A stretch of 63,952 bases of DNA, filler included, from Sluysia triapertura (Eukaryota), in the NCBI GenBank assembly GCA_046118255.1. It is 5 parts of 5 records of this genome, joined end to end, with 100 filler letters (N's around TTAATTAATTAA, not from the genome) between each part and the next. Parts side by side here need not be neighbours in the genome. Positions count along the whole stretch, not along the records: positions 1 to 12,798 come from JBJNIA010081482.1; positions 12,899 to 24,490 come from JBJNIA010183069.1; positions 24,591 to 40,144 come from JBJNIA010225239.1; positions 40,245 to 52,102 come from JBJNIA010163371.1; positions 52,203 to 63,952 come from JBJNIA010173698.1. One strand, given 5' to 3'. The first letter of the stretch is position 1. Each line of letters begins with the position of its first letter. This document shows positions 3,823 to 55,665 of this stretch, piece after piece. The notes below the pieces were generated by a model. It was given only the letters and a program-made list of their open reading frames with translations. It was not told the origin of the DNA and did no database searches. Made by a program: the position numbers and the translations under genes.

Positions 3823-4094
3823 CTATGTATGAATATATTATTTTCTTAATTAATAACAATATAGATAATTTAATATTATCAAAAATACAAATAAGTACAT
3901 GTATTTAAAATATTTTTATTGATTTGTCTTAGTCAAAATATTGATTCCTCGTTTGGAAGTTGGGATGATAGAATATCAATATATACTTTATATCATTTTT
4001 TGGTTTTTAGTTTTTGTCTATATTATACATTCCTTCATAGACACATTATAATTATCTCATTCAGATGTTCCAAATTTCAGTAACATATTATAAC

Positions 4095-4305
4095 TGTTGA
4101 GATACAGACCTAAGGTGCCGTAGTGTAATTGAGTATAATAATCTAAAAAATGTTAGACTTCATAAAATGAACTGACCGGGGATCGAATCCGGGACCTCTC
4201 GCTGCGCAGCTCGATTCCCTACCCACTGAGCTATCAGCCCCTTCTAACACTTTTTAGATTATCATACTCAATTAAACTGTGGCACTTTAGGCCTGTATCC
4301 AAACA
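4095..4305 (-). mobile_element. 211-bp element: 63-bp terminal inverted repeats around a tRNA-Ala-derived core, TGT...ACA ends, TAAC 4-bp TSD
   Basis: Arms 4095-4157 and 4243-4305 are imperfect reverse complements. TAAC at 4091-4094 and 4306-4309. Core 4168-4241(-) GGGGCTGATAGCTCAGTGGGTAG...GAGAGGTCCCGGATTCGATCCCCGGTCAGTTCA followed by TTTT. Confidence 0.85.
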
Positions 4306-7155
4306 TAACTCTTATTTGACCGATATAATAATAAATTAACATTTGCAAGATATAAAAGATATTATAATATAAAAAAGTTGATTACTTATTTGTTACTTAA
4401 AATGAAATAATAATTTCTTCATAATCAATTTTTTCCTACAATTAATTTCACAATATATCTAATTTTATTCTATAATAAAATAGACATGTTAATCTTATTC
4501 CCCCAAACAGTAGTCAATTACATTTTATAAATTTTCATCCGCTTAATTTATTAGATAATTCCAATATTGTAATTATATATACTATAGTAAATGCACACCA
4601 TCATTAATTTTTCACTTTTACGATATTCGGTGCAGCTCTTTTCATGGCTAATCAAGTGTGATAAGCTCTGTTCTTTTTTATTTTTATTTTATTATTTTTT
4701 AGTGTGCTTATGAATTGTTTCTTTTCCTTTTCAAATTTCTAATTCATTTCATGATGTTATTACAGTTCTTGAGTACATTTTTTATTTTATTAAATATCTA
4801 CAGTTATTTCTTTACAGTATCTAAAATATTAATCCATCAGATACATCTGTATCAGTAAAGCAAAACTATTCAATAATTCCGTCACGAACAAATAGAGAAG
4901 TTGTATTGAATTATTTCATCTCTTTTATTGTGTTGTTGTTTATACACATTCTAATTTAATTTCATTTGCTAAATTATGAAATTTTGACACTTTCAAAATA
5001 GAATTGTTTTAATTTTTTAAAGTTATAATAGATATTGATAAGCAAATGTATTTGTTTTGAAAATCGTACGGATGTCACTATTACATTATTAAAAACAATT
5101 AAATTGAAAAATGAATTCAATAAATTTTAATGAATTATTAAATATTAATTTTATAAATCGACTAAATTTATAAAGAAGTTTATTTTTAAAATAATTAAAG
5201 AAAATTTCATTTATAGTACTACTGTTTTTTAAATGTAATCAGCAAACAAATAATCTATTGCTTTTACTTATTTCGTAAACAAATTTAATTAAAATAATAA
5301 ATACAAAAATAATTTTCATGTTTTCTGATAATCTATTGGATAATCATTGATAAAAAAAGTTAAATTGTTTTCGATTTATTTTTGTATTTATAATAATAAT
5401 AAATAATAATAATGTAAAATAATAAAGTAATAATAATAAAGAATTTTAACATAATGCTCATTTTTATTATTAACATTCATTTTAAAATAATTTTAAAAGA
5501 ATAATGCTCAAAAATTATTTCTATTACAATGTTTTAGTATCAATTTAAAATGAGATTACATGCAGTTAATATAAATTCAAAATTTAATTGTTAAATAATC
5601 ATTTTAAAGTAAGATTCAATAAAGACAATATGAAATTAAAATTTATAAACATTAAACCTTACTATCATAGTTAAGAAATTATCTTATAATAAGAATTAAT
5701 AACAATATGAAATCAAACTTTAAGAGCATAAAACTCGATTAACATCCTAAAAACATGATTTAGGATATTATAATAAATAAGATAAATTATATCGAATAGA
5801 ATTATTATGTAGTTAAAAATATATAACATTATTCTCAATCAAAATTAATGTAAATTAAAGATTTGATAGAAATAGACGAAATTATATGTAATCAAAATTG
5901 AAAAAAGGTTGTTTAAAATATTAAAATATTTAAAATTGGAAATAATTAGAATAAATTTATTATTATTATTATTATTATTACTATTATTATTATACTGTTA
6001 TTATAATTTATTATAACTGTTGATTTGTATAACTATATAATTTATTTGCACTGTTTGTAGACTATATAAATAACTTTTGATAATAACTGATGATTTTGTA
6101 TAACTGATTTTAAAATACAAATACCAGAAATAAACAAACACTACATAATTTACAACTATAAATAAGAGTAAGTACAACAAAAAGACAATAAGTATCGAAC
6201 CAAGTTGATGAAAAATTTCTAGGGTCAGTGTAATTTATTATCAATTGTATCTATCCTGATAATTCAGAACTTCGAAGTTATTTAATAATAAAAAAGAATA
6301 AGAACTAAATTGGTAAGATTTTTAATTCAAATAATTGTAGAATTAGAAGCTATTTAATATAAATGTTACAATTACTTCCAGTCATTTAAAATAAAGTAAA
6401 AAATTAATAAAAACCAAACCATTTTAGTAATACTTATATGTTAATTAAAATAATAAAAATAAATATTTTATTAATAATTATATTCGTTTAAAATTTGTTA
6501 ATAAATCTTTGTTGTAATTTCGTCTTTCTTTTTATTTGTCGAAAATATAGAAAAAAGGGGTTGACAATAGAGCCCATACCATAAAATTAAATAAAATTCA
6601 TATAAAGCTAGTAATTTAAAAGAATTATATAATTTCCTTAATATTTTAGTTAAGTCAACAAGTTATAAGAATTTGACTTGTATTTATAACTTCTATTTTG
6701 AACATATAGGATGGTTGTACGAATTTATACCTCCAGGCGATTTGTATAACTAATTAAAATAAAACTTAAGGTTTAAAAACTTAATTAAAAGGGCACAGAT
6801 ATTATACATAAATTTTGAATTTGAAGTTCGGTGAATTAATTAAAGAAGTACAAACACAATATATAAATTTTTAAGATTAATCTTTAGCTGAAGTAGTTTC
6901 ACTAGTAGCAAATTAATATTTAAGTTTAATTTTAGACTTTACATTGTATTTCCAGTCAAATTCAAGTATAAAGTGAGAATATTGTTAAGAAGTTTAAATT
7001 ATTAGGAAGTAAGAATCCATATTAGCAAAGAAACTCAAATTATTAATATAGAATAAGAGTCCACTACAAACATATACGAATTCTATAAAATGTAAAACAG
7101 AATTAAAATGCATTCAAATTCTTTAAAGAATACAATAACTTTTTTTAATTTGTAC

Positions 7156-7220
<65 letters not shown>
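7156..7220. repeat. (AAT)n/(ATT)n microsatellite; others near 1738, 7674, 24591, 40073, 42932, 46391, 49066, 51016, 56604
   Basis: Direct inspection. Confidence 0.95.
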
Positions 7221-7223
<3 letters not shown>

Positions 7224-52935: not shown

Positions 52936-53025
52936 TTATAACTTCTAAGTCAGTCCAGCAGAATAATACACTAGCATAATTATCAATCCAATTAAATGAT
53001 CAATAAGCATCAGAATCTTCATTAA

Positions 53026-53319
53026 CCGTTTGAGTGCGGGAGAATTTTATCATGCATATGCTAAAAGTACGGGATGAAATGCGTAGTATTTTGGGGGGAA
53101 ACAATGAAAATGTTTATAATTAACACTAATTGTTATGTAACAAGTAATTTTGATCAAAAAATACTTTTTATTTTCACTTATTACAAAAATGTTTTGTAAA
53201 ATTCAACGAACTCCTTTCTTCGCATTATCGATACAAAACAAGAAAAGCGCTATCGCGCTGGGCCGTATTTTTGGCATACGACAAGTGAAGTGCGATAGCG
53301 CTTCGCCGGACTCAAAGGG
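53026..53319. mobile_element. piggyBac-type MITE (294 bp)
   Basis: TTAA|CCGTTTGAGTGCGG...CCGGACTCAAAGGG|TTAA, with subterminal inverted pair agcgctatcgcgct / agtgcgatagcgct. Confidence 0.8.
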
Positions 53320-53912
53320 TTAAATAACTATTATTTTATTTGACATTGGCGGAACCATCCAATTTATAATCCAATGATTTATTATTTTATCAAAACAATC
53401 AAGTAAATTTGATTTTATCCGGTTTCCATTCATAAGAACAAGCTATCCATAAAGTACAACTTATTCATTGTCAATCCCAATTGACACAAATTAAAATTAA
53501 AGTCAAATTAGCTTATTAATGGAATTTTGTAATATGGATTTAGAATACTAAAATCTAGTTCAGTATTTATTACCATCAAAATTACAAAATTACATAAATT
53601 AAATTGAACACGTTTAAAATAAAACGATACTTCGTAAAACCAGCACAAAATATTGAAGAAATATAAATATTAATGCATAAATTGGAAATTTGTCTATTAT
53701 TGAGTCATATTTGCTATAAGTACGCTTATGTATCAAATTCATAATTAAATATATTCTGTTTCAACGTTCACATCGAATATAATTGTAATTTGTTAATTAG
53801 TCAGAAATGCCGTCTGACTTGGTTATCAAAAAGCAATGAAATGTATTAGAATGATAGCATGTAAAATTGTTTATAAAATTGACAAACGGATAAAACCCTG
53901 AAAAAGTGGGTA

Positions 53913-54040
53913 TGCTGGGGTAAAAATGCCTAACGTGCCATTTAGTAAAACTGACTATAATAAAATAAAATCGTTAGAAGGGGCTGATAACTCACTGGTA
54001 GAGTTCGATCCCCGGTCAGTCCATTTTATGAAGTCTAACA
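53913..54040 (+). mobile_element. Internally deleted copy of tRNA-cored element, TG...ACA ends, near-TSD GGTA/GATA
   Basis: Leader gcctaacgtgcca...tgactataataaaataaaatcgttaga. The core lacks the anticodon arm. Ends gttcgatccccggtcagtccattttatgaagtctaaca. Confidence 0.8.
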
Positions 54041-55665
54041 GATATGACTGTCTTTAATTTACATGATTCCATATTCAATGCCTCTAAAATAGTAAACTAC
54101 GTTTTTATTACCAGAGTTATGTTCTACTTTTAATAAGTTTGAACAATTATGATGCAGTACAGATTCGCATGTGTAATACGGTTTATCTTTCGAAAAGGAC
54201 ATATCCATAGGAATAGTCAGTTCTGCGAAAAGTAACTTAACTCTTAATGCGTAATTAATGAGGGTCTTTTCTTGAAGAATATTATATCAATATTATTTTA
54301 TTTCGTTTTTAAATAGGTTTTTTAATTTATATCACTTTCGAATAAATTCTCAATTTTATTAAGTTTAATTCAAATAGCTTATCTTAAAAATTCTTCTTAA
54401 ATAAACGCGTATTTAATCAAAATGACGTATAAGTCGCAAATTTTATTAATCAAATAAAATTCTATAGACAAAAATGTTCTCAAATAAAACAATAATACTT
54501 ACATTTATAAATATAATGCACAAATATTACGAATAAATAAAAATTATTACAAGATGATTTTATATAAGATTTTGATCCAGGCGAATGCTTGGATTTGTTT
54601 AATGAATGTGATTTTACCTCAGATTTTAATGCAAAGACTGTCTATGAAAAAAATTATAGAAAACAAGCTTACTTATTGGTCATTAAAAATATTCGATTAG
54701 AAATGCCAGCAACGCCTTGACGAATTCCAAATAGAAACTGTATTTTTATAAACGTAGATATGTTTCACTAAATAGCCACCATCATTATGGTGATGATGAT
54801 GATGATGATTAATATTATTATTTACAAATTATATTATTAACAAAAAGTAAGATATGTAAAATATAAAATGAATGCAGAAGTATGTTCAACCTCACTTTAC
54901 TATTTTATATTCCAAAATCTTGGGGACAAGCACTTAATTGTATAAGACTGAGATCACAGGCTTACTCTTCACTATCAAGGCGATTGTGATTTTAGACTTT
55001 CATTAGGAAACCACATCAGTTGAATATTTATTAATCTAGAAAAATCAGAAATTGTTTGAAATATAGAATAAAAAACGAAGCGAAAAATTATAAAAACATT
55101 TGAAAGTATGGAAGAATCACGTTAGAAATAAGTTTTTATAAATTACACCAGATAATATAAAAAAATATTTTATAAATATTCTCTTATCAGAAACTTACTT
55201 TAGAATCTTGAAAAAGTTGTTTCTATTAATTTTTTGAAGGTTCTTAGACATTATTATTAGCTTTGTAGCTTAACTTCTTGTTCTTATTTAATTTTATAAA
55301 AATTAATGTCTTTACAAGGGAAATGCGTTAATAAATTTTTTGTTTGCATATATTTCGAGTATTAAAAGTTTTTCATTTATAAAGTCTAAGTTATTTTGAA
55401 ATAAATATAATAAAATAAATAGTATATAACTTACACAATAAATTTTTTTGAATTAAAAAACAACTTAGCTATAAAATACATTCTTTGAAATAGAAATTTC
55501 ATTATTTTAAACTTGATTTTTAAAATTTAATAAGTCTATTTAATTAAGTAAGATTTAATTATTATGTATTCAAGGTAATTTATTAAAATAAATATTTTTT
55601 CAATAAATTTAAGTACATAATCCTTACTTGTTTATAAATAATAATCTATATTCGGAATTTATTTA

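Follow-up and report, generated by a model that had tools for sequence, protein, structure and literature searches.

A tRNA-derived repeat family with TG..CA ends in Sluysia triapertura: possible Helenus-type solo LTRs and one copy with mirror-image arms

In the window, a 63,952-nucleotide stretch of Sluysia triapertura DNA, tRNA-like repeats that are neither tRNA genes nor SINEs occur at about one per 9 kb (six copies in the ~56 kb, or 55,628 bp, of non-redundant sequence). The host genome is AT-rich and animal-like. A preliminary description had listed six copies, and self-BLAST, a profile HMM and a sequence-only CM recovered all of them at the same coordinates, with copies 1 and 2 now placed on the minus strand as a correction. 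The HMM detected the six loci at E-values of 1e-48 to 3e-17, plus a second arm of copy 1, and its best score in the reversed window was E=6.1. Since the HMM and the CM were built from these same six copies, they match by construction; in an independent motif test with 100 shuffles, a core-tail motif gave five matches against 0.00 expected, and a leader motif five against 0.30.

The commoner, one-armed form is ~159 bp long and runs from TGTT through a leader, a tRNA-like part with A and B boxes and a T-run to a 17-nt tail ending in ACA. Its complete representative is copy 2 (159 bp; 16150..16308, minus strand), with the leader at 16242-16308, the tRNA-like part at 16167-16239 and the tail at 16150-16166. 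Copy 4 (49146..49296, plus strand) is 5'-broken, with a partial leader, the inner motif at 49190-49197, a tRNA-like part with a longer anticodon arm at 49199-49279 and an intact tail at 49280-49296. Copy 6 (53913..54040, plus strand) has lost 38 nt internally; its inner motif is at 53972-53979, its tRNA-like part at 53981-54023 and its tail at 54024-54040. Copies 3 and 5, also on the plus strand, are fragments: copy 3 (23952..24036) retains the leader, the inner TGTTAGAC motif at 24011-24018 and only the first 17 nt of the tRNA-like part, the B box being absent, and copy 5 (52272..52334) extends from the anticodon arm to the tail, without the leader, the A box and the final 4 nt. All six copies had been credited with a full core followed by TTTT; tRNA-like sequence is present in each, but the core is incomplete in copies 3, 5 and 6, and copy 2 has TCTT in place of TTTT. 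The claimed leader of ~65 nt upstream of the tRNA-like start is seen in five of the six copies. The 3' end described as fixed, gaagTCTAACA, closes all three one-armed copies with an intact end but is internal in copy 1, and three of the four copies with an assessable 3' end terminate precisely at the tail. The family as first described is partly confirmed.

Target-site duplications (TSDs) of 4 bp flank the three testable copies, two exactly and one with a single mismatch, in agreement with the earlier account. In plus-strand coordinates, they are TAAC/TAAC for copy 1 (4091..4094 left, 4306..4309 right), GTAG/GTAG for copy 2 (16146..16149 and 16309..16312) and the mismatched GGTA/GATA for copy 6 (53909..53912 and 54041..54044). 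None of the three can be extended to 5 bp, and the chance of two exact matches and one near match is ~4e-5. The reported TGT...ACA ends stand as TG..CA termini but not in the narrower form, copy 6 starting with TGCT. TG..CA ends combined with 4-bp TSDs speak for a DDE enzyme of retroviral type, and on this basis the original reading of the enzyme is upheld.

A functional tRNA gene was considered for the tRNA-like part and rejected, as ARAGORN found no genes and the anticodon stem is unpaired. Rfam tRNA matches reached only 29.1 and 28.4 bits, where the gathering score is 29, and the RNA folds gave z=0.04, -0.20 and -2.25. The assignment to alanine has its sole basis in the acceptor elements G3-U70 and A73, which are identity elements of tRNA-Ala and are found in 3/4 and 4/4, respectively, of the copies with both acceptor strands; the anticodon gives it no support, being GCG or GCA in register, where a functional tRNA-Ala would need NGC. 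Length variation among copies 1, 2, 4 and 5 lies mostly within the anticodon arm. Copies 1 and 2 share a B-box substitution, G53A (at 4188 and 16187, both minus strand), which breaks the closing pair of the T stem. Differences from the column majority are more frequent in the leader (42/273) than in the core (42/453; Fisher p=0.016, the copies not being independent), with p=0.10 when copy 1 is omitted. A leader more variable than the core is expected if the promoter, and not the arm, is under selection. The ends, the 4-bp TSDs, the order of leader, A box, B box, T-run and 17-nt tail, and the non-functional anticodon arm are all direct observations.

One candidate with a tRNA head and A and B boxes is a tRNA-derived SINE spread through target-primed reverse transcription, in which case the leader would have travelled with it or the ends would be due to chance. 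The density of copies and the 5'-broken state of copies 4 and 5 would suit such an origin. However, five of the six copies carry a 65-nt leader upstream of the Pol III start, the fixed 3' end has no A-rich or repeat tail in any of the three intact one-armed copies, and the TSDs are uniformly 4 bp, alongside TG..CA ends and, in copy 1, terminal inverted repeats (TIRs). The preliminary description had already argued from leader, tail and TSDs that the family is not a SINE; we agree, and regard this origin as highly improbable and largely refuted already. We would give just as little weight to decayed tRNA genes or pseudogenes lying beside remnants of a tRNA-targeting element, or to local duplications. 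LTR elements that target tRNA genes adjoin the tRNA start, as the arm does here, and pairing persists in the acceptor stem (7/7, 6/7 and 6/7), but the leader and the tRNA-like part are enclosed jointly by the TSDs, the flanks of the separate copies are unrelated to one another, and both the ARAGORN result and the unpaired anticodon arm speak against this origin.

Copy 1 (211 bp; 4095..4305, minus strand) differs from this pattern. It had been presented as a plain leader and core, which overlooked 63-bp inverted repeats at its TG..CA ends; the "leader" is one of two arms. The leader arm (4243..4305, minus strand; U3-like or a TIR) terminates in an inner TGTTAGA motif and is followed by the tRNA-like part (4168..4240, minus strand), with A box, B box, 7/7 acceptor pairs including G3-U70 and an unpaired anticodon arm. 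The T-run and 17-nt tail (4151..4167, minus strand; U5-like) are internal here, and the inverted outer arm (4095..4157, plus strand) shares its inner 7 nt with the end of the tail. The arms are identical at 54/63 positions, and the single-stranded DNA fold of this copy has z=-10.3. GTCTAACA, the supposed fixed end, therefore lies inside copy 1, 56 bp short of the real end, and it is complementary to the TGTTAGAC motif at the inner edge of the leader. Centroid structures of the single-stranded DNA show pairing between the GTCTAACA 3' end and the inner motif for copy 4 (whole-fold z=-3.2) and copy 1 (whole-fold z=-0.6); the folds of copies 2 and 6 lack it. The two arms have six private columns and two gaps in common against all other leaders, suggesting an arm lineage of their own; their ten differences split 4/4/2 between the arms, which are compatible with identity at insertion (p=0.28 against the age of the core). 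The added arm also contains a T6 run. The 63-bp TIRs of copy 1 are the strongest evidence for a MITE model and the sole unusual feature of the family.

For the one-armed form, a close counterpart has been published in Helenus, a tRNA-bearing TRIM (TRIMp3; Kojima 2024, PMC10886601). The preliminary description had assigned this role to Ajax, which carries 5S rRNA sequence (PMC10886601). According to the consensi compared and the tables of that source, Helenus LTRs start with TGT; a leader follows, then a tRNA close to the 3' end, in most cases a T-rich run, and a short ACA-ended tail. The LTRs of animal families span 104-323 bp and have TSDs of 4 bp (Table S1), the Helenus-1_PeMa LTR measuring 159 bp. 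The 104-bp LTR of Helenus-2_TeGr has its tRNA ~8 nt from the start, resembling the inner core here. The Helenus anticodon is at odds with the isotype, with boxes A and B as the centre of conservation, many families are mostly solo LTRs (e.g. 139 LTR to 13 internal), and the Helenus-1_CGi internal consensus closes with a repeat of its own LTR start. Since Helenus has the same anatomy and, in animals, 4-bp TSDs, the LTR model refers to a described kind of element and is no loose analogy. What is shared is a TG..CA unit of 100-320 bp with leader, tRNA-like A and B boxes, T-rich run and short tail, a non-functional anticodon, 4-bp TSDs (animals) and many solo LTRs. In contrast, the present family has no paired LTR, PBS or PPT seen in the window, G53A in the B box of two copies, longer family-specific motifs that are unmatched, and a 63-bp TIR form of a kind neither mentioned in the text consulted nor visible in the consensi compared by eye. 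Cassandra and Ajax, as outlined in the same source, also place a Pol III promoter within an LTR-like unit but with 5S rRNA rather than tRNA, and Ajax TSDs are 5 bp.

We put at about even chances that the copies are solo LTRs or fragments from a new Pol III TRIM of the Helenus type, from which the two-armed copy would derive by fold-back. The 159-bp unit would then be the LTR of a non-autonomous LTR retrotransposon carrying a tRNA-derived Pol III promoter, whose full form would read LTR-PBS-internal-PPT-LTR. Pol III transcription would run from the tRNA-like part in the 5' LTR to the T-run in the 3' LTR, the leader corresponding to U3, the tRNA part to R and the tail to U5. Reverse transcription and then integration, staggered by 4 bp, would be the work of a Gypsy-type helper; recombination between the two LTRs would leave a solo LTR flanked by the TSDs. 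For copy 1, the GTCTAACA 3' end may have annealed on single-stranded DNA to the inner TGTTAGAC and primed copying of the leader; this would yield leader-core-inverted leader, both of its ends being TG..CA, and the product would have been inserted as a single unit. As a fold-back hairpin has a single double-stranded end, an extra, putative step would be required before concerted integration. Pol III would fail to read through the T6 run of the added arm, so the two-armed form should be unable to retrotranspose as a TRIM, and would be a dead end or mobile as DNA.

The close rival, possible though short of probable, is a MITE moved by a Ginger2-type, integrase-like DDE cut-and-paste enzyme. Its full element would have two arms: TIRs of 63-64 bp would enclose a tRNA-derived core of 85 bp, which may be a captured solo LTR of Helenus-like type. 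The transposase would also use the inner TGTTAGAC/GTCTAACA as a terminus, yielding the one-armed form, and the Pol III promoter would be a passenger. Animal Ginger2 elements are described with TIRs of 45-180 bp, TGTNR ends and 4-bp TSDs, the TIRs of Ginger2-1N1_NV measuring 52 bp in an element of 252 bp (Bao et al. 2010, PMC2836005), and copy 1, with 63-bp TIRs, TGTT ends and an exact 4-bp TSD, fits this definition. Copy 1 resembles the Ginger2/Tdd non-autonomous elements of that description in termini, TSDs, TIRs (~50-180 bp) and size (~200-250 bp); the family differs in its mostly one-armed copies, incompletely matched RTATAY target, tRNA core and the lack of a partner transposase in the window. 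TGTNR is found at four of the six ends of the three complete copies, the other two being TGTTT and TGCTG. The 8 nt at the inner edge of the right TIR are exactly the one-armed end, and the presence of G53A in two copies with TSDs suggests that copies were made while the promoter was not intact, a point that also weighs against Helenus-type LTRs. Against the MITE, only one of four assessable copies is two-armed, the other three lacking TIRs, the arms are less conserved than their supposed passenger, the tRNA is separated from the two arms by 2 and 10 nt, an arrangement as in Helenus, the inner core has no flanking direct TSD, and the window holds no core-only or arms-only copy. The reconstructed targets match RTATAY at 4/6, 1/6 and 4-5/6 positions, none completely, where composition alone predicts ~2.5 of 6 (three sites only). 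No Pfam integrase or transposase match was found in 112 fragments of the window, nor an autonomous partner with the same ends within it. Ginger1 was rejected, its CCGG/CCGT target occurring in none of the three TSDs.

Solo LTRs of the Helenus type are favored by a layout that agrees with the consensi compared by eye, by the size and TSD range of animal Helenus LTRs, by length differences that here also centre on the anticodon arm, by the 3' ends that stop at the tail, by the more variable leader (with the reservations given above), and by the predominance of solo LTRs in many published families. The internal terminus-like motif has a precedent in Helenus-1_CGi, and a fold-back would fit both the 3'-end pairing seen in copies 4 and 1 and the arms of copy 1. 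On the other hand, one two-armed copy among four is many for a rare accident, and the private columns and gaps of its arms also argue against one. Paired LTRs and a PBS, whose absence would suit the MITE, were not seen: none of the six copies has a same-strand partner at TRIM distance in the ~56 kb, the nearest copies being separated by 1,578 bp that include a SUN-domain remnant, and TGG follows none of the four intact 3' ends, as expected of solo LTRs. The probability of finding none of four paired is ~0 to 0.46 under published LTR:internal ratios (10 animal Helenus families; the fungal families and Helenus-2_CGi, with a ratio >1, left out). Among 10 short motifs searched in the Helenus supplement text, the longer family-specific ones had no match and the others chance matches only; ggattcga, the B box with G53A, did not occur, although line breaks in that text can mask matches. 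Of the two models originally proposed, solo LTR and Ginger-like MITE, both are alive, and the initial interpretation is partly supported.

It is also conceivable, though unlikely, that the family switched class: a Pol III TRIM LTR would have gained an inverted arm, by self-primed fold-back or TIR enclosure, and then spread as a MITE. Because LTR and Ginger ends share the TGT..ACA and 4-bp chemistry, an integrase-like transposase could spread the two-armed form. If so, one family may have both retrotransposed solo LTRs and DNA-transposed TIR elements, with one-armed units possibly moved as DNA. With its LTR-like form and the mirror-image ends of one copy, the family may bridge the retrotransposon and cut-and-paste classes. 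Helenus-type solo LTRs would add one more host for a patchily distributed kind of element. The two-armed copy is weightier, touching on the origin of MITE inverted ends and on the relation between LTR elements and Ginger DNA transposons; the LTR-to-TIR claim currently rests on this one copy, and the fold-back motif that joins the two forms makes such a route testable by a copy census.

Other known elements offer partial likenesses, within their published descriptions. MER6, a Mariner MITE with a V-SINE body (PMC6887750), is a precedent for a SINE body in a MITE, in favor of the MITE model, and likewise holds Class I-derived sequence between TIRs, but it has lost the tRNA head, which is the core here; its TSDs are TA and its TIRs 24 bp long. 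IS481EU/Banshee (PMC10045372) shares TGT..ACA ends and, in some families, 4-bp TSDs; it differs in being parabasalid-restricted as described, with TIRs mostly <50 bp, mixed TSDs of 4, 15 and 25 bp and no tRNA core in the description. As to a PPT, one purine run precedes copy 6 (0.9% of 15-mers; four sites examined), though this copy has a near-TSD; as to a Gypsy helper, the window shows only a weak RT-like remnant at 13701-13853 (E=0.36).

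The six copies of the tRNA-cored element listed in the preliminary description, at 4095-4305 (-), 16150-16308 (-), 23952-24036 (+), 49146-49296 (+), 52272-52334 (+) and 53913-54040 (+) (copies 1 to 6), were all recovered in the window by self-comparison, HMM and CM searches, and the family is real. Motif counts were 5 versus 0.00 in shuffles for the core-tail portion and 5 versus 0.30 for the leader. With about one copy in every 9 kb, the family is spread over four contigs of five, and core identities are 82-93% in nine of ten pairs; the exceptional pair, copies 5 and 6, has little overlap. 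The flanks of different copies are unrelated. Both ends are present in copies 1, 2 and 6, where the 4-bp TSDs claimed earlier are borne out (TAAC/TAAC, GTAG/GTAG and GGTA/GATA; joint chance ~4e-5), none of the three being extendable to 5 bp. Two exact-pattern scans of GTDB genome contigs and a distant BLAST search of phage records with copy 2 as query each gave 0 matches, which carry little weight given that these collections are prokaryotic and phage, respectively. At 45271-45352 (-) there may be a seventh copy, a heavily decayed piece similar to the inner leader (CM 11.4 bits, rough E=0.005; missed by the HMM).

Read in the tRNA sense, the one-armed unit starts with TGTT, followed by an AT-rich leader closing with TGTTAGAC, together about 65 nt. 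After 2 nt comes a tRNA-like sequence of 73-81 nt, and then a 17-nt tail that opens with a T-run and ends in GTCTAACA, exactly complementary to TGTTAGAC, the inner motif. The tRNA-like part retains the acceptor stem (7/7, 6/7 and 6/7 pairs), the T arm and most of the D stem, while the anticodon stem is unpaired and variable in length. ARAGORN found no tRNAs at the copies in the window, and their Rfam tRNA scores lie at the threshold. Copies 1, 2 and 6 carry G3-U70 and A73, identity elements of tRNA-Ala, the isotype proposed in the preliminary description. The in-register anticodon, however, is GCG or GCA; the isotype is therefore uncertain, and RNA from the core would not be a working tRNA.

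Copy 1 runs 56 bp beyond the tail, repeating its own leader in inverted orientation. Because it bears this second arm, the family has one-armed and two-armed forms, which account for three and one of the four assessable copies. Its description as leader plus core had overlooked terminal inverted repeats of 63 bp (54/63 identical), which lie inside the exact TSD and fold into a hairpin with z=-10.3. The arms are 84% identical to each other versus 71-79% to the other four leaders, and have six private columns and two gaps in common. Their 10 differences are evenly split over both arms, and the arms fit identity at insertion (p=0.28). The cores of copies 1 and 2 share 90% identity and the B-box change G53A. 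A generic scan of the window for TGT..ACA ends, TIRs and TSDs returned 37 candidates, with copy 1 as the sole family member. A longer inverted repeat, reaching 4074/4326, was rejected: of the 21 positions beyond the TSD, 11 match (uncorrected p=0.04), and among the first seven there is one match. Insertion of the core into a palindromic MITE may have occurred but lacks support: no direct TSD lies on either side of the core. Pol III terminates at T-runs, and the added arm contains a T6 run. Transcription would end there, ahead of any PBS, and the two-armed form would therefore be no ordinary TRIM LTR.

The two forms are connected by the 8-bp inner complementarity. When the copies are folded as ssDNA, pairing between the inner motif and the 3' end is seen in copies 4 and 1 and is missing in copies 2 and 6, which carry mutated inner motifs. 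Fold-back of the 3' end on the inner motif, followed by extension, would yield exactly copy 1; conversely, cleavage of copy 1 at its inner motif would leave precisely the one-armed form. Which of the two forms gave rise to the other cannot be read from the window. The one MITE-shaped copy raises a switch from LTR to TIR, which we consider unlikely.

Elements in which a tRNA promoter lies inside a TG..CA unit flanked by 4-bp TSDs have been described before. The LTRs of Helenus TRIMs contain a tRNA-like sequence, and their TSDs in animals are 4 bp long; Ajax is a 5S-bearing TRIM (PMC10886601, Kojima 2024); the preliminary description, which made Ajax the tRNA-bearing one, had swapped the two. 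In the available part of that paper, the Helenus consensi mostly show the same order as the family, namely leader, tRNA-like part, T-run and short tail, animal LTRs measure 104-323 bp, and solo LTRs are often more numerous than complete elements. A text search of the available Helenus supplement, which is not an alignment, gave 0 matches to the family-specific motifs, and 'ggattcga', the B-box sequence with G53A, was absent from it (PMC10886601). The paired direct copies with PBS and PPT sought as a sign of LTRs did not appear in the window: none of the six copies is paired, and none of four intact 3' ends is followed by TGG (the PBS test). Under ten published animal Helenus ratios, the probability of no pairing ranges from ~0 to 0.46. 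Since the layout matches but paired LTRs, PBS and PPT were not found in the window, the element looks like a Helenus LTR, with membership unproven. Copies 5 and 6 were rejected as an LTR pair; they lie 1,578 bp apart, with a SUN-domain remnant between them and no PBS. ATATGAC opens the 3' flanks of both copy 4 (49297-49323) and copy 6 (54042-54068), with a shift of one position, and the two flanks show weak similarity over 27 nt (p=0.011, one of 16 pairs), which could be target preference or chance. A shared internal region or half-tRNA PBS at this place was also rejected, the anchored similarity being limited to that one pair and disappearing over 120 nt (p=0.41).

We give a Helenus-type solo LTR about even chances. 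The Helenus layout and the majority of one-armed copies argue for it, as do the higher variability of the leader relative to the core (42/273 versus 42/453, p=0.016; p=0.10 without copy 1) and length variation among copies that falls mainly in the anticodon arm. A Ginger-type MITE is a somewhat less probable alternative, to which a TIR copy among only four assessable, the apparently separate lineage of the copy 1 arms, the failure to find a PBS, and the B-box change G53A in two cleanly inserted copies all point. The G53A sequence does not occur in the Helenus supplement, and the change may weaken transcription in this host. Ginger2 has TGTNR ends, TIRs of ~50-180 bp, 4-bp TSDs, an RTATAY target and a 252-bp non-autonomous member (PMC2836005, Bao et al. 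2010). Copy 1 agrees with it in size, ends and TSD, and RTATAY is not clear at the three family target sites. These sites exclude the CCGG target of Ginger1. An integrase-like partner, suggested earlier as a sign of Ginger, was not found in the window: 112 stop-free fragments, chosen by composition and not exhaustive, gave 0 integrase or transposase Pfam matches. The tRNA-like part stands behind a leader and within fixed ends, and a SINE is very improbable; a tRNA pseudogene is equally so.

MER6, a Mariner MITE in which the SINE body lacks its head (PMC6887750), comes closest as a precedent for a tRNA-promoter unit with long TIRs; the available parts of the IS481EU paper (PMC10045372) and of two TRIM papers (PMC4717578, PMC13570524) added no closer match. 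A literature search, with Repbase, Dfam and subscription journals outside its range, found no tRNA-promoter element that has long TIRs or Ginger-type ends or that became a MITE from an LTR. The family is probably a new Helenus-like TRIM, and it may already be catalogued.

Exon-like fragments in the window matched histone deacetylase and adenylate/guanylate cyclase domains, pointing to an animal source. A cyclase-like exon with divergent motif residues at 12329-12478 (-) is followed by S/Q/P-rich exons down to 3469, and the putative exons at 4554-4688 and 3469-3822 flank copy 1. Divergent HDAC6-like exons at 55956-59939 (+) have no close relative in protein collections; one gave 0 relatives, and another eight matches at 35-56% identity, the species-named ones being two nematodes and a frog, a spread too wide to be diagnostic of the host. 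Between copies 5 and 6, a SUN-domain fragment at 52750-52926 (+) (Sad1_UNC, E=1e-7) lies in sequence that is interrupted by many stops and resembles a pseudogene. A MITE candidate at 53022-53323, which we take to be of the piggyBac superfamily, has TTAA at both ends, inverted ends of ~14 bp, CC(G/C)TTTGAGT, and a GC-rich internal hairpin; similar TTAACCCT ends also occur at 12987, 28945 and 31797. Pfam matches were found to Endonuclease_7 at 61847-62014 (-) (E=2e-5) and, after a short tandem repeat, to a CCCH zinc finger at 14419-14946 (-) (E=2e-4). Degenerate reverse-transcriptase-like fragments at 13701-14059 (+) appear Gypsy-like by eye (best PDB E=0.36, no Pfam match). A second dispersed repeat, unclassified, relates 22242-23628 to 47291-48268 in inverted orientation, with ~77% identity over several hundred bp.

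The window, with a G+C content of 23-25%, is not continuous and consists of five stretches of 11.6-15.6 kb each. Its 100-bp spacers (44 N, TTAATTAATTAA, 44 N; 12799-12898, 24491-24590, 40145-40244 and 52103-52202) join separate contigs, so neighbours across them are unlinked. The third stretch, 24591-40144, is an entire contig forming a perfect, loop-free palindrome of 15,554 bp with 0 mismatches, most probably an artefact of assembly or of whole-genome amplification, and features within it therefore occur twice. The non-redundant sequence in the window amounts to 55,628 bp.
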